Below, one piece after another: positions 128 through 41,847 of a DNA stretch of 41,847 nucleotides. Origin of the DNA: a virus; the IMG/VR virus record IMGVR_UViG_3300031953_000042; one strand, 5' to 3'. The position numbers and the translations under genes are program-made. How positions within the stretch are numbered: position 1 is the stretch's first letter; each line of letters begins with the position of its first letter. The notes under the pieces were generated by a model. The model was given only the letters and a program-made list of their open reading frames with translations, was not told where the DNA came from and searched no databases.

Positions 128-429
128 TTCGCGCCAAGAGAGAGCACAACGGCGGCCGCGTTGAAGCCAATCACCAGCCACGCGTAAACGGGCCCGAGCA
201 GCGTTTCCAAGCTTGGCGCCACGTCGGGACTAATCAGAAATGCGTACACGATCGGAACCGCGACGTTGATTCCGAGCAACCACGGGATTGCGGATTGTAC
301 GAACGTGCGCCAACTTGTGCGCTTAGGGTTCGCGACCTGAGTCGGCACCCCGTCGTTTTGGATGCCGCTCGCGGTGAGAGCGGCGGGGACAATCACCAGT
401 TGATCGGCGGTTGCTTTTGCGGGTGTCAT
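28..429 (-). CDS. Holin-like membrane protein (2 predicted TM helices)
   Basis: ATG at 429 overlaps the endolysin stop (ATGA at 426-429). Hydrophobic stretches are FVQSAIPWLLGINVAVPIVYAFLI and LLGPVYAWLVIGFNAAAVVLSLGA. It lies immediately downstream of the endolysin. The longer track ORF (to 507) has an Arg-rich, non-protein-like N-terminus. Confidence 0.6.
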   Translation of the reverse strand: MTPAKATADQLVIVPAALTASGIQNDGVPTQVANPKRTSWRTFVQSAIPWLLGINVAVPIVYAFLISPDVAPSLETLLGPVYAWLVIGFNAAAVVLSLGAKLLAQIMAQPAVNALISNTPWLSWLAPIKPAGE

Positions 430-1412
430 TCGGTGTCCTTTCGTCCGGTTATTTTGTTGATGATTTTCGCGAGTGCGGCGAACAATGCCACGATAGCGGC
501 CCCCCAATTCGGCGCGGGCTTCGGCGCGGGGATCTCCGGTTTCGGTGTTGGCTCCGGTTCGACGGGCTCGGCCGGTTCGACGGGCTCCGGCTCGATCGGG
601 TCGGGCGTCGGTTCGGGCTCGACGGGCGTCGGCTCCGGCTCCGGCTCCGGCTCAACGACGACCGGGGGTTCCGGTTCCGGTTCCGGCGTCGGTGTTGGCG
701 TCGGTGTTGGCGTTGGCGTCGGAACAGGTGCCGGCGCCACCGTCTTGTCCTTTATGTCGTGCCCGTGAATCTCGGTGAATCCGCCGGCATTAGCCCAGCC
801 GCCGGTTGCCGCGATTTCATACCAGACGCGCGTTCCGTTGTTGAGAGAACCGTCGGTGACGAATCCCGATATTTCGACAATCTGCGCCGGCGCTAATACC
901 GTGTGAAGCTTCGCGGCCGCGTTCGGTGAGACCCGCACGTTGACCGCTGAGTCTCCGCTGACTTGTCGTTGTGTGCGAGTCGGGCCCGGCGCGTTGATCT
1001 TCACAACGTTCCCGCCGTTCGTCGCCGACCAACCTAGGAACTGAAGTTTCGCGCGTGCCTGAAAGTCGGCATGTGAGACCCGGCCAATGTTGCGGGAGAC
1101 CCCGCCGAAGTGATCGGAGATATGCCGTGAGCCCATAATCCAAACCCCGCCGCCCTCATAGATCGCGACGTGATCGTCGGTGCCCCACAACCAGTACCCG
1201 ATCGCGCCGACGGGCGCCGTTCCCAGATCGGGGTTGAGCCAACCGGAAGCGAGTCGAGCAGCGCGCGCGGTTCCGTAGGTGCGAAGCCAACCGCCGGAGA
1301 CAACCGAAACGCGAGCGACGGCCGCTTGGCACCACATGTTCCACTCTTCAACACCGCCGCCGGACGGGTTGTATTTCTGAAAGAACTCGCGAAGCTCCGC
1401 GACGGTGCTCAC
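426..1412 (-). CDS. Endolysin: N-terminal Cys/His peptidase (CHAP / NlpC-P60-like), SH3-like middle domain, PT/PE-rich linker and C-terminal hydrophobic anchor
   Basis: GTG start in a GTGA overlap with the upstream mini-ORF. NMWCQAAV (Cys28) and DDHVAIYEGG (His81) resemble the CHAP/NlpC-P60 catalytic pair. VRVSPN...VWYEIAATGGWANAG looks like an SH3b fold. The linker spans aa 226-302, followed by NWGAAIVALFAALAKIINKI and a basic tail. Confidence 0.75.
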   Translation of the reverse strand: MSTVAELREFFQKYNPSGGGVEEWNMWCQAAVARVSVVSGGWLRTYGTARAARLASGWLNPDLGTAPVGAIGYWLWGTDDHVAIYEGGGVWIMGSRHISDHFGGVSRNIGRVSHADFQARAKLQFLGWSATNGGNVVKINAPGPTRTQRQVSGDSAVNVRVSPNAAAKLHTVLAPAQIVEISGFVTDGSLNNGTRVWYEIAATGGWANAGGFTEIHGHDIKDKTVAPAPVPTPTPTPTPTPTPEPEPEPPVVVEPEPEPEPTPVEPEPTPDPIEPEPVEPAEPVEPEPTPKPEIPAPKPAPNWGAAIVALFAALAKIINKITGRKDTE

Positions 1413-1858: not shown

Positions 1859-3799
1859 CTAGATTTTGATGATGCTGTTTAGAACGATGTACGGCGGAAG
1901 ATTCGAGGTCGAATCGGTCAAACCCTCAATCGATGCGCCGGCGGTTGCCGTGGATGACGAACCGCCGGGAGCAGTAATTCCGCCGCTGTTGGTTGCCGTC
2001 CATACCGGGACAGTTCCGCCGCGACTCTTCCAAAAACCAACCCACACGGCAGCGACCGCTTGCGTCAATGAGTGGGTGTGCGCCTTAGCGCCGCCGGTTT
2101 CGCCGAGCGTGTCGAACTCGGTCTGAGTTGAGTCGAACCCGACGGAGACCCGGCCGCGTTTGTTCGGAATGTTGAAGTGACTAACGTCGGCCGCGCCGTG
2201 AGCAGTTCCGAGCGCCGCGAACAGTGCCGGATACGCCGAACGAAGCAACGAACGCCCGTCACAAAACAACCAACCGGCGGGCTCTACGGCTCCGGCGAAG
2301 TCCATCGTCGAACCCGACGGAATCAGCAACGCGAGCGTGGCCGAGTCCGCGACGGCTTTCCCGTCGTTCTGGTATATCTGCCCCTTGGCATCGATCGAGC
2401 CTTGCTCCCAATACTTGCCGACGGCCATTCCTTGCCCGGCTCCGGCGAAGTGGATAAACACGCCGGCGGTTGTGATCGTGGCATTGATGTAAAGCACGCC
2501 GCCGAGCACGTCGGAAAGAATCAACTGCAAGTCGTAAGACGTTCCGACGCTATAGACACCGAACTCGAAGTGGTTCGCGTAAGCGATCGCGCCGGGGGTC
2601 TCGGTATGTACCGCCGTGCCCCAGTCCGTTGTTCCCCGAACCCGGGTGAAAGCGTTGATCGTTAGCGCGTTCTTTTCCACGGCCGCAACCGTGAGAGATT
2701 GCGCGGCCGCGGTTAGATCGGCACGAATGTAGGTGCCGTTCTCGTCAACGGTTCCACCGGAGAGAGAGCGCCGGAACTGTGCTGCAGACATAGCCGGAAG
2801 CGAATACGCGAGCACGGTCACGGTTACAGTCTCGGAGTGCGTGCGGCCGCGGGAGTCGGTCACGGTTCCCACAAGAGCAACGGAACCGCTCACGCCGATC
2901 GGGTCGGGTGTTGTTCCGGCCTGTGCGTTGATTGTCTGCGCGCCCACCGTGATCTTGTAACTAGCGACCGTTGCCGAGTACGGGGCGGTCGCCGACGTAA
3001 TGGCCAGCGCTAGTTTCGTGAAGCCCTGAACATAACCCCCAATTGCGGTGCCGACGGCGGTCACGGTTTCCGCGTGTGTGATCGTGCCGAAGTCGGGCTC
3101 GAAAGCGGCGCCGGCGGGGACTCCGAGCGTGAGCACTTTCGTTGTCGTGCCGATCAGCGTCGCACCGTTGTACGTCTTCGTTGTCACCGTAAGCGGCCCC
3201 GAGGTCGCGTTCGGCATTTCGTTCAGCAACGCAAGCGGGAACGTGAACGCCGTCGAAGCGCCAACGCCCGACGCGATCGGCTGAGCGGTGAGCCCGCCGA
3301 ATGCGTAACTCATTTCATGCGTGAAGCCGCTCGAGGCTCGGTTCGTGTTGAGAGTGACCTCCACGCCGGCGTCGGCGCTTGTGACCGTTGAACCCGCAAC
3401 CGCGAACGTGACGTTGGAAGCTCGCGGAATCGTTGAGAGAGTGAGCGAACCCGCCGCGGTGCCGGCGCCGAGTTGCCCCAAAACGTCGTTGAACGTTCCC
3501 GAAACGCTGAGCGTCTTCGAGCCGTCGGCATTGTGACCGACTACGAACGTGCCAGACCACAAGAGCAGCAGCGAGTAAGACCGAAAGTCGTAGGTGAAAA
3601 CACCGGAGAAAGCGCCGCCCGTGTTACCAGAGAACGAATCGTTCGAGTAAGTCCAATAACCCGAACCGGAGAGCTTGCGAATGTAAAGCGCCCCGTCGAC
3701 TTCCGACGTGTTGCCGGGAATGCTGATACTTCCCGTATCTTCGTCCGCGTAAAGCTCGAGGCGGTACTTCGAGCCAAGCGCCGCAAAATATGTAGCCAT
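1859..3799 (-). CDS. Tail fibre / receptor-binding protein with C-terminal phage tail-collar domain
   Basis: The C-terminus GWLFCDGRSLLRSAYPALFAALG...FNIPNKRGRV...GGAKAHTHSL...NLPPY matches the tail-collar (PF07484-type) pattern. The middle is Thr/Ala/Gly-rich and beta-like. TAATG junction with the upstream gene. Confidence 0.8.
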   Translation of the reverse strand: MATYFAALGSKYRLELYADEDTGSISIPGNTSEVDGALYIRKLSGSGYWTYSNDSFSGNTGGAFSGVFTYDFRSYSLLLLWSGTFVVGHNADGSKTLSVSGTFNDVLGQLGAGTAAGSLTLSTIPRASNVTFAVAGSTVTSADAGVEVTLNTNRASSGFTHEMSYAFGGLTAQPIASGVGASTAFTFPLALLNEMPNATSGPLTVTTKTYNGATLIGTTTKVLTLGVPAGAAFEPDFGTITHAETVTAVGTAIGGYVQGFTKLALAITSATAPYSATVASYKITVGAQTINAQAGTTPDPIGVSGSVALVGTVTDSRGRTHSETVTVTVLAYSLPAMSAAQFRRSLSGGTVDENGTYIRADLTAAAQSLTVAAVEKNALTINAFTRVRGTTDWGTAVHTETPGAIAYANHFEFGVYSVGTSYDLQLILSDVLGGVLYINATITTAGVFIHFAGAGQGMAVGKYWEQGSIDAKGQIYQNDGKAVADSATLALLIPSGSTMDFAGAVEPAGWLFCDGRSLLRSAYPALFAALGTAHGAADVSHFNIPNKRGRVSVGFDSTQTEFDTLGETGGAKAHTHSLTQAVAAVWVGFWKSRGGTVPVWTATNSGGITAPGGSSSTATAGASIEGLTDSTSNLPPYIVLNSIIKI

Positions 3800-6048
3800 T
3801 AGTTGAGAGCCCTCATAACTGTGCCTTTCACTCCGGCGGGTGCCGCCTCAAACTTGTGAGCTCCTAGAACTACCTGTTCGCCGACGAACTGTTCGGCGTA
3901 CATGACGCCACCTTGCCACCGGGCGAGAACTGTCAGACCGTCGCGGGCTTCGATGCTTTCGTTGTCGATCGCGAAAGCAAGGGGCGAGCCCGGCTGACTG
4001 ATTCGGAGTTCGTCGGGCGTGAAGTCGTACCGTTGACGCAAGTCGGCGAGTTCCGACGTTGTGTCGCCTAGATCGCTCGCAACTTCCGCTATCTCGCCAA
4101 CGACAAGGCTGATCGATTCGTTGGCGCTAATGTCTAGGGCTCCACCGACGCCGGCCGCAATATGCCGCACTTCGATAGCGCCGGCCGTGATCGTGTTCGC
4201 CGTGACCGTGTTCGCGATAAGGTCGGCGCCGTCAATGCCGACGACTTCGACTTCGGTCGCTTCCGAGAGAGCCGACTCGCGGCCGAGCCGGTCGATTGCA
4301 GAGAGCCGAAACCACCAGACCGAACCGACGCCGAGCCCGATCAAACTCATTCGCTCGGAACCTTTGAACAGAGTCCCGACCAGTGAGTACTCTCCGTCTT
4401 CGGCCGTGCTCATGTAGGCGTTGATCTGTTGGAAGTGTGCCGGCGGGAACGTCACCGGGTCGGTGTCGAACGTTCCCGGCCACCTGAGCTCAACAACCCC
4501 GTTGTTTGATGTTCCTGTTGGTCGGGTCGGTGCTTCGAGCGCGAACGTTGGCTGCGCCATAGTGACCGCAACTTCCGCGCTGAACGCACCCCACACGCCG
4601 TTCTTCGATTGCGCTCGCACTTTGATAAGCCAAGCCGTTAGCGGGTTGAACGGGGAAGCGCTCGCCGCGTTCGTCGTCGTCGTTGTGAGTGCGTTCGACT
4701 CGGTGGCGCCGTCGTTGGGGCGTCCCCAAAGTTCATACGCCGCAACGTCAATCGCGACGTCGTTCGTTCCTTGTGTAACTTCCGTCCACGTCGCGCCGAT
4801 CTGTGCGAGCGGAATCCCGCCATCTGACCAGTACCCCGCCGAACCCACAACCAACCCGGCCGGCGCTTTCGGCGCTCGACGGTCTTCGGTCGATGGAACC
4901 CCGCCGGAACCCGAAGCGGAAGAGCCGCCGACAATGCCCGAGGTTCTCTTCGCGACCCGTGCGAGCAAGTCCAAGAAACGGTCGTTTAGAACAGGGGTGA
5001 CGGTGATCGCGCCGGAGTTGTTTTTCAGAACTACCAGTTCGGCAACGCGCACACGCTCCCAATCGCCGGCGAGCCAAAGCAGAACCCAATCGGCGGGGAA
5101 GTAGTGACGCCACGGCAACGACTCGGCGTTCTCGGCCTGTTCGCTCGCGGTGATCTGCCGGCGTACTTCCTTGCCGAGCGTTAGCCGCTGTTGTGCCAAT
5201 AGCTCGGCGGTGCCCTCGTCGCTCACTCCGCCCTGTTGGATAGCGACGCGCAACGCTCCCAGCTCGGTTACGGCGCCGACGTTCGTCACTGAGTGAGTAA
5301 ACCCGTCTTCACCGAAGAGAACGGCATCCGTCGCCAAGTCATCCAGCGATCGCTTTACGGGGGTTGTTGTCGCGAGCCGGCCGACACGGGTCGGGGCGTC
5401 GCCCGTGCTCCGGTCGGTGCCGTGCTCCGGGTTCCACAGGTGAATCGTGCGGCCGGCCGTGCTGAACTCGACAACACCCTGATCGATCAAGTTTCTGAGC
5501 ACAACCCACGCGCTAGTTCCGGGGGCGTACTGAATAGTGAGTTGTTCGGCCCAAGGGATGCCGGCGGAATCGTGCGTGGCCGTGAAGTCGTAAGAGAGTT
5601 CAACGCCCCAACCGAGCGCCTGTTCTTCGTCGATGATCGTTTTGAAGATCGCGCCGGGCGTCGAAGAGTTGAACGGGCGGTGGCCGTTCACAAGGTCGGC
5701 TAGATCGGGCGGGTTTTCTACGATCGCTTTCGCGAGCTTCCACGGGACAAGTTGCGCACCCTGTAGAGAGTGAGCGCCGGCGGGGTCGGTGTCGTCGTCG
5801 TTGTCGGTGTTCAGCAGAAAGCGACAATCGGGCGGCTCTACCCACGCGGCGTCGGCGTCGTTCCAATACTCGAGCGCGGCTTCAACGATCGTGGGCAACT
5901 TGCCGTAGATCGCTTGCGAAACCTGAGCGCGCAAAACCGACGGCGAACCGTTCGGGATAGTGGCGCCGAGCGTTTCCGTTGTGACCGTGCCGACACGATC
6001 GCCGGCGGGAACGTAGCGAACTAGGCGAAGATCAAACCTCGTAAGCAT
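3799..6048 (-). CDS. Minor tail protein (Tal-like baseplate/tip protein, probable FN3-like repeats)
   Basis: 749 aa, positioned directly after Dit. FN3-like segments (PKAPAGLVVGS...AYELWGRP, and PTRPTG...VELRWPG). ATG at 6048 with AAGGGG upstream. Confidence 0.7.
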   Translation of the reverse strand: MLTRFDLRLVRYVPAGDRVGTVTTETLGATIPNGSPSVLRAQVSQAIYGKLPTIVEAALEYWNDADAAWVEPPDCRFLLNTDNDDDTDPAGAHSLQGAQLVPWKLAKAIVENPPDLADLVNGHRPFNSSTPGAIFKTIIDEEQALGWGVELSYDFTATHDSAGIPWAEQLTIQYAPGTSAWVVLRNLIDQGVVEFSTAGRTIHLWNPEHGTDRSTGDAPTRVGRLATTTPVKRSLDDLATDAVLFGEDGFTHSVTNVGAVTELGALRVAIQQGGVSDEGTAELLAQQRLTLGKEVRRQITASEQAENAESLPWRHYFPADWVLLWLAGDWERVRVAELVVLKNNSGAITVTPVLNDRFLDLLARVAKRTSGIVGGSSASGSGGVPSTEDRRAPKAPAGLVVGSAGYWSDGGIPLAQIGATWTEVTQGTNDVAIDVAAYELWGRPNDGATESNALTTTTTNAASASPFNPLTAWLIKVRAQSKNGVWGAFSAEVAVTMAQPTFALEAPTRPTGTSNNGVVELRWPGTFDTDPVTFPPAHFQQINAYMSTAEDGEYSLVGTLFKGSERMSLIGLGVGSVWWFRLSAIDRLGRESALSEATEVEVVGIDGADLIANTVTANTITAGAIEVRHIAAGVGGALDISANESISLVVGEIAEVASDLGDTTSELADLRQRYDFTPDELRISQPGSPLAFAIDNESIEARDGLTVLARWQGGVMYAEQFVGEQVVLGAHKFEAAPAGVKGTVMRALN

Positions 6049-23189: not shown

Positions 23190-23861
23190 CTAAACGATCG
23201 GGCTCACGGCGCCATGCAGCGCGGCTTCGGTGGCGCGAAGCTCTTCCCGGCGAGCGGCTTCGTTCAGTGCGGAAGTGTTCGCCGGCGGGAACGCTTGCGT
23301 GAACATGGCGGCGGCTTCGTGCATCTTCGTAGGGAACCGGACGGGAACTTCGTCGAGCGTGCCGGGCCCGTGCGCTGTTCCGCCGCCGACGGTGTGAAAA
23401 CGCACCGTTTCGGGGTTGGTCTCGTCGAGAATGCCGGAGAGATACCCGCGGGCGTCGTCGAGTGCGGCACGGGTTCCGGCTTTGTCATGCTCACACGCGT
23501 TGACGTACTGCCGTTTGAGTATCAGCAACAGGCCGGCGAGCTCGGAGACCGATCGGTCGGCAATGAATTGATCAACGTCGGCGTGAGCGGCGTCGCGGAA
23601 CTTGCGGGCGTTCTCCACGTCTTCGGCCACGGTTGTTCCGAGACTCAAAGCAACGGGAATACCGCCATGCCCAACAGAGCGAGCGCGCACGTTACTAGAA
23701 GTGTCCACAGCATTCTCCACGTCATTGTTCGGTTCTGCCTTTCGTGCTCGGTTGTTGAGTTGGTCTTGTACGTCGTCGAGTGTGTTCCGTGCTGAGTTGA
23801 TAGCGTTCTGCAATTCGCCGAGCGCGATCAGTTCCGCAGCTTGTCCAAGTGTTACGGCCAT
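23190..23861 (-). CDS. Hypothetical protein
   Basis: 223-aa ORF with protein-like composition and an ATG start. Confidence 0.65.
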   Translation of the reverse strand: MAVTLGQAAELIALGELQNAINSARNTLDDVQDQLNNRARKAEPNNDVENAVDTSSNVRARSVGHGGIPVALSLGTTVAEDVENARKFRDAAHADVDQFIADRSVSELAGLLLILKRQYVNACEHDKAGTRAALDDARGYLSGILDETNPETVRFHTVGGGTAHGPGTLDEVPVRFPTKMHEAAAMFTQAFPPANTSALNEAARREELRATEAALHGAVSPIV

Positions 23862-23897
23862 TGTTTCGGTTCTTTCTACTAGGTGAGCGGTTAGGGG

Positions 23898-24599
23898 TTA
23901 GCCGGTGATCTTGATCGGCCAGTGTGTGTTCACGTCGGAGGCGTCTTTACCTGACCGGCGAAGATAGTCGGCGAATGACTCCGCTTGTGAGCGGGCCCAC
24001 TCGACTTGTGCGGCGTGCACTCCGTCGGGGTTGACCGAAGCGGCGAGCGCTAGATCGTCGAAGCGGCGAAGCATGGACTGCAGAACGCGGCCGGCGGCTA
24101 TGGAATCGGCGAGAGCTCCGTGGGCTTCACCCTCAAACTTCACCCCGTAGTGCTCGGCGGCGGCTACTAGGGTGCGCTTGCCCTTGCGGAAGCGGTCGAA
24201 TTGCTTGTCGAGTACCAGCGGGTCGAACACGTTCGGGCGGGGCATTAGCTCTTTGAGTTCTTTCCCGAAGTGGCGGCGGGTGCCGGCGTCGAGCATGGAC
24301 AGATCAAACGGGGCGTTATAGATCACGATCGGGAGATTGGCGCCGATCGCCGTCCGCAAGTGACCGACCATTTCGGCGATAGCTTCGCCGGGGACTTGGC
24401 CGAGTGCGGCCATTTCGTCGGTGATGCCGTGCACGGCGGTAGCTTCCGCGGGGATATGGATCTCCGGGTTCACTTTCCATTCGTGCCAATCCAACAACTC
24501 CCCGTCTTCGTCGAGCAGCGAGACCGCGCCGGAAACGATGCGGTCGTTCTCGGTGTCGACTCCGGTTGTTTCTAGGTCGAATGATGCGAGAGCAATCAT
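23898..24599 (-). CDS. DnaQ-like 3'-5' exonuclease (DEDDh family)
   Basis: Exo I FDLETTG, Exo II IYNAPFDLSML and Exo III HGALADSIAAGRV. Confidence 0.85.
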   Translation of the reverse strand: MIALASFDLETTGVDTENDRIVSGAVSLLDEDGELLDWHEWKVNPEIHIPAEATAVHGITDEMAALGQVPGEAIAEMVGHLRTAIGANLPIVIYNAPFDLSMLDAGTRRHFGKELKELMPRPNVFDPLVLDKQFDRFRKGKRTLVAAAEHYGVKFEGEAHGALADSIAAGRVLQSMLRRFDDLALAASVNPDGVHAAQVEWARSQAESFADYLRRSGKDASDVNTHWPIKITG

Positions 24600-24680
24600 G
24601 GGTTTGCTTCCTGTTCTGTTTCGGTTGTGCCTAATTGCACACCCCCGGCTACCCCGTGAGAGATAGCCGAGAGAGAGCCG

Positions 24681-25841
24681 TTAGGCGCTGATCTTGCGGT
24701 GACGAACTAGCGACGTGACTACAAGAGCCAAGCCGAGCAAGAGCGAACCGATTCCGAGACCGGCGGCCGCGGTGTTGTCGCTTCCCGTGAATGCGAGAGC
24801 GGCGGGCAGGGTCGGTGTCGGAAGATCAACAACCGGGGTCGGTGTCGGCTCGACGGGGGGCGGGGTTGGCTCCGGCTCGACAACGACGGGGGGAATTGTT
24901 TCCCACGTCATCGTCGGGTTGCAGGTGTCAGTTCCGACCGTGAAGACGACCGTCGTTCCGTCAACGAAGTGCCACGTTTCCGACTGCCCGGCGTTCGTGG
25001 GCATGTGGACGTAGATATTCCCGGCGATCATGTGCTTCGCCGGCTTGTCGTCGTAGCCCTGTTGTGCCGACTCAATCCAACCGCCGAACGATTCCGCGTT
25101 GAACAGGGCGGGCATGTTTTGGGTTGCGGCGTCGCGGCCGAAGTGAATCTCCCACCACACGTCGTCGCCGTTCACGTTGCCGGTTGTTCCCTCGGCTTCA
25201 CACAATGCCGGGGGAACGATAACGCAATCAGTCGCCGGCACAATCACCGGGTAAGCAACGGCGAGCGTCGTCGAACTGTCGGCGAACTTGTGCCCGCTGT
25301 TGGCGATCGCGTTCCGCTCTCCGTCGGTTGTGTCGGTGTCGTTCTCCCATGTGGCGTTCTCAATGGCGAACGCGGTCGAACCGGCGGCCGCGCACGTCGC
25401 GGGAGTCGTGACGGCGCTCGCGGTGGCGTCGAGCACGTCGGGAATTACGCACGCGGGAACGACAACGGTCGCGCTCTTCGTGTAGGCAAGTTTGCCGGGC
25501 TTGTGATTCTCGAACTGAACGCCAACGCTCAGCCGGTATTCGCCCGGCTCGACGTTCTGCGCCCAAGTCTGAGTTACTTCGTTGCCGCGAAGCGGGAGAC
25601 CGATCGCGCTCACGTCGGCGGGGGTAACGCCGTTCACTTCGAGACTTTCGATGGTGGCGTTGATTTTGTCGTACCCCTTGCCAAGATCGCCGGTAACTGT
25701 CCACGCGATCGACGCTTGGCCGGTTGTTGTGTCGCAGTTCGGGGTTCCTGTAACGGTCGGGTGGGTGGCGCTCGCGGGAATCGCGGCTCCTGCCACCACT
25801 AGGCCGGCGGCGAGTAGTGTCGCCGTTGCTGTTTTGAACAT
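24681..25841 (-). CDS. Secreted cell-wall-anchored surface protein (signal peptide plus LAFTG sortase sorting signal)
   Basis: N-terminus MFKTATATLLAAGLVVAGAAIPASA. C-terminus has a Pro-rich linker, LAFTG (codons 24783-24797), the hydrophobic stretch AAAGLGIGSLLLGLALVVTSLV, then RHRK. Confidence 0.8.
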   Translation of the reverse strand: MFKTATATLLAAGLVVAGAAIPASATHPTVTGTPNCDTTTGQASIAWTVTGDLGKGYDKINATIESLEVNGVTPADVSAIGLPLRGNEVTQTWAQNVEPGEYRLSVGVQFENHKPGKLAYTKSATVVVPACVIPDVLDATASAVTTPATCAAAGSTAFAIENATWENDTDTTDGERNAIANSGHKFADSSTTLAVAYPVIVPATDCVIVPPALCEAEGTTGNVNGDDVWWEIHFGRDAATQNMPALFNAESFGGWIESAQQGYDDKPAKHMIAGNIYVHMPTNAGQSETWHFVDGTTVVFTVGTDTCNPTMTWETIPPVVVEPEPTPPPVEPTPTPVVDLPTPTLPAALAFTGSDNTAAAGLGIGSLLLGLALVVTSLVRHRKISA

Positions 25842-25860
25842 TGTCTGGGTCTCTCTTTCG

Positions 25861-26169
25861 TTATTCGGTGGGTGTTGCTATTGCTACGCCGTGCGCGTGC
25901 GCGGCGAGTTCGATGGTTTTCGGGGAAGCGTTGGCGAGCATTAGGTCGCTGAGCCATTCGGGGAGTTCGCCCCAACAGAACAAAGAGCGGGTGCCGGGCT
26001 CGGCGGGGAGTTCATGCCAAGAGAACCCGACACCGCGGCCGGCTTCGTCGAACGTGAACACGGTCACGGGGGCGTTTTGGTCTACTTTCTCCCATGTCCC
26101 GTTGCCGATAATCGCGTTGACCATTACGGCAACGACGCGGGCGAACTGTTCGTTAGCGGTTTTTGTCAT
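25861..26169 (-). CDS. Hypothetical protein
   Basis: 102-aa ORF with an ATG start and tight spacing in the operon. Confidence 0.6.
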   Translation of the reverse strand: MTKTANEQFARVVAVMVNAIIGNGTWEKVDQNAPVTVFTFDEAGRGVGFSWHELPAEPGTRSLFCWGELPEWLSDLMLANASPKTIELAAHAHGVAIATPTE

Positions 26170-26172
26170 GGT

Positions 26173-26517
26173 CTAAACCTTGCCGATCAGCGTCAGCAGT
26201 TGTTCCGGCTTCGTGATCGGGATGTGGCACGAAGCGCAAAGAATGATCGCCGCGGCGGGCACGGTAAAGAACTCGGCCACTTCCCGGTTCATGTGCTCGA
26301 AGCCGTCCGCGCAAACTGCCCGCAAGAATGGCTCGCAAGTCTCCATCGATCGGGAGTGCGCGACCATGACAACCCAAGCGGCCGGCGCTTCGGGGTCGCA
26401 CCCGCGACGCCCCTCAACGTGCCGGGGGCGATCGCATGGCACGAACGGCTCGAAGTCGAGAGCCGCGAGAACACTCTCGTCGATGGTTAGCCCGGTGACG
26501 GGTTCCGCGGTGCTCAT
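26173..26517 (-). CDS. Hypothetical Cys-containing protein
   Basis: 114 aa. ATGA overlap with the upstream gene. Confidence 0.6.
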   Translation of the reverse strand: MSTAEPVTGLTIDESVLAALDFEPFVPCDRPRHVEGRRGCDPEAPAAWVVMVAHSRSMETCEPFLRAVCADGFEHMNREVAEFFTVPAAAIILCASCHIPITKPEQLLTLIGKV

Positions 26518-26912
26518 AGAACACCGTCCCCGGTGACAACCACGGCGCCGTCGGGCATAAGCACGGTTTCAATGGTCATAGCGTCGAGCGGGTTCGCGCC
26601 GCCGTCGGAGAGCTCCCGCACGGTTTGGAGAATCCACGCCATGAGAGCCGTTTCGGGCCCGTGCTCGGCGATCGCTTCGGGTTTGATCGTGTGCACCGCG
26701 CGAACGACAAAGCCGGGGGCGGCGGTGCGGTCTTTGGTCTGCCCGAAAGAGCCTCGAGCAACGTCGGCGGGCTTCGGTGCCCCGTTGATCGTTCCTAAGT
26801 CGTAGGCGTCGCGGATAGCTTGCAACGCTTCGGCGCGGGTAATCTTCGCGATTCGTTGAACGTTGAGCAGCTTCGTTGCGATCTGTTCGAGTGCTTCGGT
26901 GGGTTCTGACAT
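26514..26912 (-). CDS. Hypothetical protein
   Basis: ATG at 26912 with GAAAGAG upstream; sequence begins MSEPTEALEQIATKLL. The track extension to 27140 is Pro/Ser-rich shadow sequence overlapping the next gene. Confidence 0.6.
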   Translation of the reverse strand: MSEPTEALEQIATKLLNVQRIAKITRAEALQAIRDAYDLGTINGAPKPADVARGSFGQTKDRTAAPGFVVRAVHTIKPEAIAEHGPETALMAWILQTVRELSDGGANPLDAMTIETVLMPDGAVVVTGDGVL

Positions 26913-38452: not shown

Positions 38453-38683
38453 TTATCTTCCGAAGTTGCGGGTGATTTCTGCGGGGTCTTCGAGCCCGAA
38501 GAGCTCGGCGAGCAGTTCGAGTTCGTGCAGGGTGAACTCCCGCCGGCCGTTCATGCGTGCCGATACTGCCCCCAATCCGCGCTCGATCGTTTCGGCGATC
38601 TGTTGGTTGCTTACGTTGTTTTGAGCGGCGAGAGCGCGCACGTTGCCCGCTACTTTCTCCGCGAAGCTGAGTTGAGTTGCCAT
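38453..38683 (-). CDS. XRE/Cro-like helix-turn-helix regulator
   Basis: ATG 38683 with GAAAGG upstream. NVSNQQIAETIERGLGAVSARMNGRREFTLHEL is an XRE-type HTH. It is the first gene of the leftward operon at a divergent junction. Confidence 0.75.
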   Translation of the reverse strand: MATQLSFAEKVAGNVRALAAQNNVSNQQIAETIERGLGAVSARMNGRREFTLHELELLAELFGLEDPAEITRNFGR

Positions 38684-38823
38684 GTTTCTACCTTTCGTTA
38701 TTAGAGACCGTAACACAAACACGCCGCGCCGCGACCTGTTTAGGTTGTTTTCCGTTCACTTTGTGCCGTATAGTGGACTGCATCGGGTTCCTCCCGGTAC
38801 TACCCAGAACAGATTGGCACAAC
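38684..38823. promoter_or_regulatory. Divergent intergenic control region; candidate plus-strand promoter TTGTTT-18-TATAGT
   Basis: This is the only strand switch of the divergent type. TTGTTT lies at 38745-38750 and TATAGT at 38769-38774. I could not identify a convincing minus-strand promoter. Confidence 0.4.
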
Positions 38824-40702: not shown

Positions 40703-41101
40703 TTACTCGGCCGGGTGTCGCGACTTGCGCGGCTCAACGTCGAAGATCACCTGAGAGCGGCGCCGGAGTCGAGCAACCAACGAAGCGTCTAGGCGGGTGA
40801 TCGTGACGGCGACGCCGAAGTACACGGCGAAGCGGAACGCCGGCCGCCATTCGAGCACGTCGGGCGGGGAGACATACCAAGGGGCGCTTCCGCCGACGAA
40901 GATCGCGACGAAGATCAGCGCCACCACTCCGAGCAACGAGAGCGTGAACCAGAACACAAGCTGCCCGGCCGCGGTGTCATACCAGCGGAACCGGAAGCCG
41001 TAGAGAGCAACCCACACGATAAGGGCGCCGGATATGTAGAGAACGGTCATGTTCGCCACAACCCACAAGGCGGGGTTGATGTAGTCGGTTAGTGCGTCCA
41101 A
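40703..41101 (-). CDS. Membrane protein (about 4 TM)
   Basis: TTG 41101 with GGAGGG 8 nt upstream. Hydrophobic stretches: ALWVVANMTVLYISGALIVWVALYG, LVFWFTLSLLGVVALIFVAIFVG and FRFAVYFGVAVTI. Confidence 0.6.
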   Translation of the reverse strand: MDALTDYINPALWVVANMTVLYISGALIVWVALYGFRFRWYDTAAGQLVFWFTLSLLGVVALIFVAIFVGGSAPWYVSPPDVLEWRPAFRFAVYFGVAVTITRLDASLVARLRRRSQVIFDVEPRKSRHPAE

Positions 41102-41701: not shown

Positions 41702-41734
41702 GCGAGCCCCGCACCGGGTAGGGGCGGGGCTCGC
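41702..41734 (-). terminator. Hairpin T2 downstream of the holin-like gene, near-identical to T1
   Basis: GCGAGCCCCGC ACCGGGTAGGG GCGGGGCTCGC. On the minus strand it is followed by TTTAT. It shares AGCCCCGCACCGGGTAGGG and GCGGGGCT with T1. Confidence 0.55.
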
Positions 41735-41847
41735 GGCCGTGCTTAGTTTATTCGCCGGCCGGTTTGATCGGTGCGAGCCATGAAAGCCACGGCGTGTTGC
41801 TAATCAACGCATTGACGGCGGGTTGCGCCATAATCTGCGCGAGCAGT
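41721..41847. repeat. Terminal overlap copy 2. It duplicates the 3' end of the holin-like gene (28-127) and half of a hairpin.
   Basis: Exact duplicate of 1-127. It contains no independent genes. Confidence 0.95.

Follow-up and report, generated by a model that had tools for sequence, protein, structure and literature searches.

The window analysed here, the 41,847-nucleotide stretch of DNA in IMG/VR virus record IMGVR_UViG_3300031953_000042, contains on its minus strand a complete coding sequence (24681–25841) that starts with ATG, encodes 386 amino acids followed by a stop codon, and probably specifies a phage-encoded, wall-sorted surface protein that is a substrate of the housekeeping (class E) sortase of its host. 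The parts of the protein were delimited from the open reading frame (ORF) list and the sequence itself, with hydropathy for the hydrophobic segments, and all are given in window coordinates on the minus strand. The predicted signal peptide MFKTATATLLAAGLVVAGAAIPASA (aa 1–25; 25767–25841) has one basic residue, a hydrophobic core (Kyte-Doolittle hydropathy above 1.5 over aa 3–27) and an A-S-A site, a heuristic call that places cleavage at ASA/THP. It is followed by three modules that we designate D1 (aa 26–130; 25452–25766), D2 (aa 131–205; 25227–25451) and D3 (aa 206–316; 24894–25226), and by a Pro/Thr/Val/Glu-rich stalk, PPVVVEPEPTPPPVEPTPTP (aa 317–348; 24798–24893), which is presumed to span the wall and has equivalents in the phage homologs. 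The C-terminus consists of the class-E type sortase motif LAFTG (aa 349–353; 24783–24797), with predicted cleavage between T352 and G353, a hydrophobic membrane-retention helix (aa 357–379; 24705–24773; hydropathy up to 2.19) and the basic cytoplasmic tail RHRKISA (aa 380–386; 24684–24704). Six cysteines occur in the protein, at residues 36, 131, 150, 206, 214 and 307, and a purine-rich sequence resembling a ribosome-binding site (RBS), GAAAGAGAG (25851–25859), lies 9 nt before the ATG. An earlier, sequence-only reading of this DNA had described the ORF, signal peptide, Cys-containing ectodomain, stalk, LAFTG, helix and RHRK, as well as intergenic gaps of 81 bp on the downstream and 19 bp on the upstream side and an RBS belonging to the gene, and we found all of these as it described them.

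The C-terminal architecture of the protein is conserved in its relatives. An exhaustive HMMER search returned 88 relatives (a word-indexed search returned three only), and in 68 of the 89 proteins, query included, L[PA]xT[G/A], a hydrophobic helix and a basic tail stand together at the C-terminus. The great majority of these 68 signals are LAxTG, the commonest pentapeptides in the family being LAFTG and LAYTG with 12 proteins each, and the distance of the query motif from the C-terminus, 38 residues, matches the median for the family. One relative, P0007, bears the IMG name 'LPXTG-motif cell wall-anchored protein'. At the other end of the protein, D1 begins T-[H/V/I]-P directly after the AxA site in 27 of 32 D1-bearing relatives, suggesting that the mature N-terminus itself, THP in the window protein (aa 26–28; 25758–25766), is conserved. 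Because the gene has homologs, most of the family share the signal, the motif sits at the median distance and the junction between AxA and D1 is kept, the sorting-signal architecture is, judged from these alignments, more than chance. LAXTG is the published signal of class-E sortases, which are prevalent in soil and freshwater/aquatic Actinobacteria, and the class-E enzymes SrtE1 and SrtE2 cleave LAXTG peptides and attach ChpC to the wall (PMC5148588). The class-E sorting signal proposed from the sequence alone is thus supported, both by the presence of its three parts and by their conservation. The sequence-only reading had made its case depend on conservation of LAFTG in homologs; the phage homologs do keep the motif, as LPYTG (P0002), LAVTG (P0006) and the variant LAYTA (P0003 and P0004).

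The ectodomain is built from modules that occur in different combinations and numbers. By local phmmer, D1 is present in 36 proteins, always directly after the signal peptide; D2, a repeat module of about 74 aa with the consensus DAxAS..PATC..G..F.I.NATW.D..D.TDGSR.A.A..GH.F, has 85 copies in 54 proteins, with one to five copies per protein; and D3 (WWEIHFG ... GYDDKP ... YVHMP), which was also compared by BLASTP, is rarer, occurring in only five proteins, the relatives that have it being P0003, P0004, P0005 and P0038. None of the three modules belongs to a Pfam family, profile searches with D1+D2, D2 and D3 found nothing among PDB sequences, and the whole protein has no match in Pfam, NCBIfam, PHROGs or PADLOC. 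A scan of IMG/VR for D2 returned nothing, and a D1+D2 profile run against an index of 5.8 billion proteins returned one protein, the search probably having been swamped by low-complexity words. In the AlphaFold2 model used here (59-row fragment alignment, mean predicted local distance difference test score, or pLDDT, of 80), D1 and D2 are all-beta sandwiches with pLDDT above 90, and D3 is poorly modelled; an earlier run on a 4-row alignment (pLDDT 42), in which aa 365–384 were helical, was discarded. Foldseek comparison of the model with PDB and BFVD gave nothing below E 1e-3, returning generic Ig, CARDB or Fn3 sandwiches only, and no enzyme-like structural match to D1 or D2. We therefore do not claim a specific fold family. 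Two specific roles were considered and not adopted. An N-terminal His-brace or YcnI-like copper domain in D1 was dropped because there is no Pfam DUF1775 match and the mature protein is predicted to begin with Thr. For an intramolecular isopeptide bond or a role as a pilin, there is no pilin-motif evidence.

The relatives fall into two classes, LAFTG proteins encoded on chromosomes and the products of genes that lie in the early or DNA-metabolism region of phage contigs not otherwise related to the window. A genome scan with an 8-sequence alignment found the chromosomal kind at two loci only, in a Terrimesophilobacter metagenome-assembled genome (MAG) and in Leifsonella bigeumensis (the source of P0009), both Microbacteriaceae. 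The chromosomal locus is conserved and contains two genes for LAFTG surface proteins (4664–8885 of contig L006, from the Terrimesophilobacter MAG, and 1643–7594 of L010), and two further syntenic metagenomic contigs, L011 and L012, also carry it. Its order is a beta-lactamase-like gene (Beta-lactamase2), the two large LAFTG proteins, HEM4, DUF1304, an FAD monooxygenase (FAD_binding_3) and PFK. From genome to genome the surface proteins differ greatly in size (706 aa vs 1112 aa) and in the domains they contain, which marks the locus as hypervariable and as a candidate for encoding phage receptors. By BLASTP, D1+D2 of the window protein are 40% identical to the 706-aa LAFTG protein of the Terrimesophilobacter MAG, D2 is 61% identical to the neighbour of that protein, and D3 is 65% identical to aa 616–728 of the chromosomal 1112-aa LAFTG protein P0005. 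All four proteins of the host locus that we examined end in ...LPTLAFTG, a helix and a basic tail. Since D1–D3 match chromosomal LAFTG proteins at 40–65% identity and share LAFTG with them, the phage protein is a compact chimera of host surface-protein modules that carries the host's own pentapeptide. The likeness to the chromosomal proteins (in L006, L010–L012 and Leifsonella bigeumensis WP_344752824) extends to the ..ASA/THP style of the signal peptide junction. In contrast, the host proteins are two to three times longer (706–1112 aa), with extra repeats and other domains, whereas the phage protein is minimal, having one copy per module and joining modules from different host proteins. The G+C content of L010 is 62.7%, against 61.8% for the phage. 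We infer from these sequences that the host belongs to the Microbacteriaceae.

Such similarity to chromosomal genes, reaching 65% identity in domains common to both, could arise if a bacterial gene had been joined to the contig by misassembly, or if the contig were a fragment of a host genome. This is extremely improbable in view of the window as a whole. Its two ends carry an identical 127-bp repeat (1–127 and 41721–41847), the signature of a circular assembly, and the window is therefore a complete circular phage genome of approximately 41.7 kb (about 41,720 bp). An identical protein, P0001, was found in three sources (JGI, Logan and ENA), the source samples being SRR22704850/52 and IMG 3300031953, and in the three contigs carrying it that were read the neighbouring genes are mostly the same. 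The gene sits inside a tightly packed, same-strand array of phage genes and has a G+C content (62.7%) that equals that of the genome (61.8%), and the same arrangement of signal peptide, ectodomain, stalk and sorting signal, which we call the chassis, recurs in four other phage or phage-like contigs and in six cultured phages, one of whose proteins belongs to a family found in 136 records, as described below. The phage nature of the window is evident from PHROG and Pfam scans, which identified structural and packaging genes (tape measure, tail proteins, major and minor head protein, portal and large terminase) and DNA-metabolism genes (DNA methyltransferase, RecT, YqaJ exonuclease, SbcC-like ATPase, RuvC-like resolvase and DnaQ-like exonuclease), almost all of them on the minus strand. 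The tail-tip proteins are encoded at 1859–6048. The major capsid protein is approximately 63% identical to those of Streptomyces phages SV1 and Picard, Rhodococcus phage REQ3 and Gordonia phage GMA1, and the portal matches only actinophages and a few Bacillus phages. Megablast of 10 kb of the window against 50,697 phage records found no nucleotide-level relative. No integrase or recombinase catalytic domain was found by Pfam or PHROGs in any ORF scanned, in agreement with what the sequence-only reading had reported, and because the window is circularly closed this absence is a property of the complete genome.

The surface-protein gene is flanked by genes of DNA metabolism, with the terminase module about 3.3 kb away and the head and tail genes at a great distance. 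Upstream, 19 bp separate it from the stop codon of the next gene (25861–25863), and the 81-bp gap downstream, though at the high end, is of a normal size for this genome. A scan for the sigma-70 consensus, the only promoter type sought, found no promoter-like site in 23800–26600. Directly after the stop codon, on the same strand, is a strong stem-loop (24629–24686, identified by RNA folding) with a core 14-bp stem (24660–24673 pairing with 24642–24655) and no U tract. Its fold of -38.5 kcal/mol has a z of -3.64, none of 200 shuffles being as stable, and a scan for consensus terminators did not call it; it is a candidate factor-independent terminator or RNA-stabilising element.

This position also bears on whether the product might be part of the virion, a decoration or accessory protein with Ig-like domains whose terminal hydrophobic segments are incidental. 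Foldseek matches among viral models were generic Fn3/Ig-like tail and decoration proteins (E 2e-3 or weaker), and a nearby upstream ORF weakly matches a PHROG labelled as a tail fiber, both of which would fit a virion protein. We nevertheless consider this very improbable, since the signal peptide and C-terminal anchor would take the protein out of the cytoplasm, where virions assemble, the gene lies among DNA-metabolism genes at a distance from the structural modules, and the closest relatives are cellular wall-anchored proteins. A virion role for the ectodomain had been named by the sequence-only reading as one outcome that would overturn its proposal; the gene is in the early/DNA-metabolism block, and nothing suggests a virion component. 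The upstream ORF in question (26173–26517, minus strand, 114 aa), two genes away, matches phrog_2857, 'tail fiber protein', at E 2.5e-6, yet is itself far from the tail genes.

The relatives on other phage contigs share different parts of the protein. P0002 has the N-terminal third in common with the query and ends in LPYTG, a helix and a basic tail, and P0003 and P0004 have the C-terminal third in common with it and end in LAYTA, a helix and KARK. P0002 is encoded directly before a helicase on IMG/VR UViG 3300031953_000017 (L008). The genes for P0003 and P0004 (10001–11290 of L001, and L005) follow SSB; P0004 stands directly after it, on a contig with ERF, YqaJ, ParB_N and terminase, and IMG/VR UViG 3300031953_000021 carries a relative of this pair. 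The best match to D1+D2 is P0006, which ends in LAVTG and is encoded on L009, a contig of small ORFs. PHROGs gave no match to ten L009 ORFs, and the phage nature of this contig follows from the genes it has in common with the viral contigs L001, L005 and L008. When all window proteins were compared by tblastn with L001, L005, L008 and L009, the surface-protein gene was practically the only one with a match. Judged from these contigs, it behaves like a cassette that is mobile and shuffled and that sits in the early or DNA-metabolism region. The sequence-only reading had called the gene weakly moron-like from its spacing and its own RBS, and this holds in part: its patchy distribution among unrelated phages is as expected of a moron, and the downstream hairpin may be, but there is neither room for a promoter nor a sigma-70-like site, its G+C content is like that of the genome, and the 81-bp gap is an ordinary one.

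The chassis is also present in cultured phages. A tblastn search of the window protein against the 50,697 phage records gave no match, and the connection came from structure, the second BFVD Foldseek match being an uncharacterised protein of Microbacterium phage Cressida. Once translated, Cressida gp81 proved to have a signal peptide (..APASA/HTP) and a P/E/T stalk, together with LAQTG, a helix and RRRQ. P0004, which shares D3 with the window protein, has an N-domain homologous to that of gp81 (33% identity, E 2e-17). With gp81 as query, tblastn matched 136 phage records, all of them from Microbacterium phages. Translations from six phages of different genera (Cressida gp81, ClearAsMud gp84, Anakin gp58, Dewdrop gp123, Grassboy gp74 and Magritte gp249) all combine a signal peptide and an ectodomain with Cys residues with a P/E/T stalk, a pentapeptide that is LAQTG or LAATG, a helix and a basic tail. 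The genes are at 48489–49766 of L013 (Cressida gp81) and 2396–3721 of L014 (ClearAsMud gp84), with the remaining four at 1387–3018 of L015, 1303–3009 of L016, 1360–2853 of L017 and 625–3258 of L018. Their ectodomains have no detectable direct similarity to D1–D3, and the link to the window protein is indirect, through P0003 and P0004, which combine a Cressida-type N-domain with D3. The window protein and the cultured-phage proteins thus appear to share a chassis and not an ectodomain; common to both are also a signal peptide ending in ASA/H or ASA/T and a gene position in the non-structural region. GenBank labels the family 'hypothetical protein' or 'membrane protein'. Two members, Quhwah gp85 and Paschalis gp81, are labelled 'glycosyltransferase', which looks like a misannotation. 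A survey of 116 Microbacterium phages found most to be obligately lytic and makes no mention of LPXTG, sortase or signal peptides (PMC7302621), and ClearAsMud is described as lytic (PMC7660999). The searched literature contained no paper pairing a Microbacterium phage with a sortase, and the papers combining actinobacteriophage with LPXTG were unrelated; a description of this family as sortase substrates is absent both from the annotation and from that literature. Recognition of the chassis would at once improve the annotation of a large phage collection.

Taken as a sortase substrate, the protein can be placed in a sequence of steps. With a 19-bp gap to the preceding gene, a shared strand and no promoter-like site, the gene would be transcribed together with early or middle lytic genes. 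The pre-protein would be exported by Sec, its signal peptide being cut at ASA/THP, and would be retained in the membrane by the C-terminal helix and RHRK tail until the sortase cleaves the T352–G353 bond and passes the protein on to lipid II, giving a covalent bond to peptidoglycan. A Pro-rich stalk of about 30 residues would then present three small disulfide-containing modules. Because these modules are the same building blocks as those of the chromosomal LAFTG surface proteins of Microbacteriaceae, the phage would display on the infected cell a short imitation of the variable surface proteins of its host. The proposal of the sequence-only reading, a phage-encoded, Sec-exported class-E substrate in a phage lacking an integrase, is supported in this respect by the tripartite signal, its conservation and the complete genome.

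The purpose of such a protein is more doubtful. The sequence-only reading had named exclusion of superinfecting phages, receptor masking, decoying of released virions and remodelling of the cell surface as candidate roles. The possibility that we favour, with limited confidence, is that the surface change during lytic growth reduces further adsorption, resulting in superinfection exclusion and/or sparing progeny from infected cells and debris. Adsorption could be cut by masking the variable LAFTG proteins of the host or by imitating them. We also offer, as a tentative generalization, the suggestion that lytic phages of Microbacteriaceae routinely use the class-E sortase of the host to fix to the wall a protein partly copied from that host, which masks or competes with the receptor.

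Several points weigh against this interpretation, in its anchoring, its role or its lytic setting. The check by anchor hidden Markov models (HMMs) that the sequence-only reading had recommended gave no support, as neither Pfam Gram_pos_anchor PF00746 (E up to 1) nor any of the NCBIfam anchor models (E up to 10) matched the protein. The motif is not invariant, for two phage homologs, P0003 and P0004, have LAYTA in place of the T-G scissile pair. LAYTA, which occurs as well in one other relative, P0049, may be tolerated as a variant, may address a sortase of a different class (the class D signal is LPXTA; PMC5148588) or may reflect decay. For the putative Microbacteriaceae host, the many LAxTG proteins of that family imply a cognate sortase, and while the sortase-substrate reading is well supported by sequence, cleavage and wall attachment are predictions. 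With regard to exclusion or masking, neither the protein nor the genes around it gave a PADLOC match, and it resembles no known exclusion protein, although the silence of PADLOC and PHROGs has no bearing on whether the protein acts like an exclusion system. In addition, a wall protein made late in a short lytic cycle might reach the surface too sparsely. The lytic setting is considered further below, together with a repressor-like gene.

The points concerning the signal would be accommodated by a C-terminally tail-anchored membrane protein whose LAFTG stays unprocessed and whose ectodomain sits in the wall zone. The hydrophobic helix together with the basic tail would suffice for that topology, the 'membrane protein' label of the Microbacterium-phage counterparts agrees with it, and so do the unmatched anchor HMMs and the occurrence of LAYTA rather than LAxTG in two phage homologs. 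We regard it as unlikely. The pentapeptide is kept at a fixed distance from the C-terminus across unrelated ectodomains and stalks, and the chromosomal relatives are typical sortase substrates, one of them annotated as such. Moreover, PF00746 matched 2 of 85 relatives scanned, and since it misses the other 83, most of the relatives having a visible motif, its silence is uninformative; the anchor models are evidently tuned to LPXTG and insensitive to LAxTG.

The sequence-only reading had recognised no repressor, and here it needs correction, because an 89-aa helix-turn-helix (HTH) protein encoded at 38453–38722 (minus strand) matches Pfam HTH_31/HTH_3 and a PHROG annotated 'transcriptional repressor'. 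This gene would be compatible with a non-integrative temperate lifestyle, and is the last of the points that count against the interpretation above. It adjoins the sole plus-strand block of the genome (39346–40645), whose three genes matched nothing in Pfam, PHROGs or PADLOC, and the divergent layout resembles a genetic switch, here in a genome without an integrase. The protein could be imagined as a factor for lysogenic conversion or colonisation, altering the adhesion or surface properties of the lysogen of a temperate phage that persists without integrating. There is a precedent in SasX, a sortase-anchored LPXTG surface protein carried on a phiSPbeta-like staphylococcal prophage (PMC7047976). 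The repressor-like gene facing a divergent block of three matchless genes would suit such a role, as would a strong hairpin that could insulate expression of the gene and an ectodomain resembling adhesin-like, Ig-type host surface proteins. We find this improbable, given that the complete genome has no integrase, that the ORFs scanned include none with a recognisable role in partition or plasmid replication, and that the 19-bp gap and lack of a promoter-like site argue for co-transcription with lytic genes. The chassis is, furthermore, common in Microbacterium phages, which are mostly obligately lytic (PMC7302621) and include ClearAsMud, described as lytic (PMC7660999). SasX and the window protein are alike in being sortase-anchored surface proteins (by prediction in our case) carried by a phage genome. 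They differ in that SasX has a class A LPXTG signal and is a colonisation factor of the lysogen, on a temperate prophage of Firmicutes, whereas the window protein has a class E LAxTG signal, is encoded inside a lytic early gene array of an integrase-less genome, and has no sequence similarity to SasX.

The predicted sortase substrate can be compared with other known systems. Its signal peptide, its C-terminal LAxTG, helix and basic tail, and its actinobacterial context are those of class-E substrates such as the Streptomyces chaplins ChpA–C, the substrates of SrtE1 and SrtE2. Unlike the chaplins, it is encoded by a phage, its modules D1–D3 are unrelated to theirs, and its anchoring is predicted from sequence. 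With respect to function, phages are known to encode exclusion lipoproteins that are anchored at the cell surface, including Llp of T5 and Ltp of Streptococcus thermophilus phage TP-J34. Like these, the window protein is phage-encoded, would be exported by Sec and fixed on the outside of the infected or lysogenic cell, and would be apt for blocking receptors or DNA entry. Llp and Ltp are anchored by a lipid (lipobox) and not by sortase, and have no homology to the window protein. On this analogy, we conjecture that the window protein may play the part of T5 Llp or TP-J34 Ltp in a sortase-anchored form suited to Gram-positive cells.

Sortase substrates are classic in Gram-positive cells, and phage-borne LPXTG proteins have been known as virulence cargo of temperate Firmicutes phages, for example SasX. 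What is new in our results is a predicted class-E LAxTG version in an integrase-less actinophage, located within a lytic gene array and built from host surface-protein modules, and the presence of the same chassis, widespread and unrecognised, in cultured Microbacterium phages. If such proteins are indeed anchored to the wall, lytic phages would be remodelling the peptidoglycan-bound surface proteome of the cell shortly before killing it. With phages in isolation, a host that can be cultured, Microbacterium foliorum, and a motif that is easily mutated, this would then be a tractable system for studying superinfection exclusion, the masking of receptors and mimicry of the host in Gram-positive bacteria of high G+C content. 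Should masking by way of sortase also prove correct, it would represent a widespread and so far unrecognised phage strategy for excluding competitors and saving progeny from debris.

The remaining observations concern lysis. No endolysin catalytic domain was recognisable in the ORFs scanned. A holin gene is located near the right end of the window (40703–41101, minus strand; Pfam Phage_holin_2, E 9.5e-10), and across the circle junction from it lies a 328-aa ORF (426–1412, minus strand) that carries only a weak SH3_3 match.

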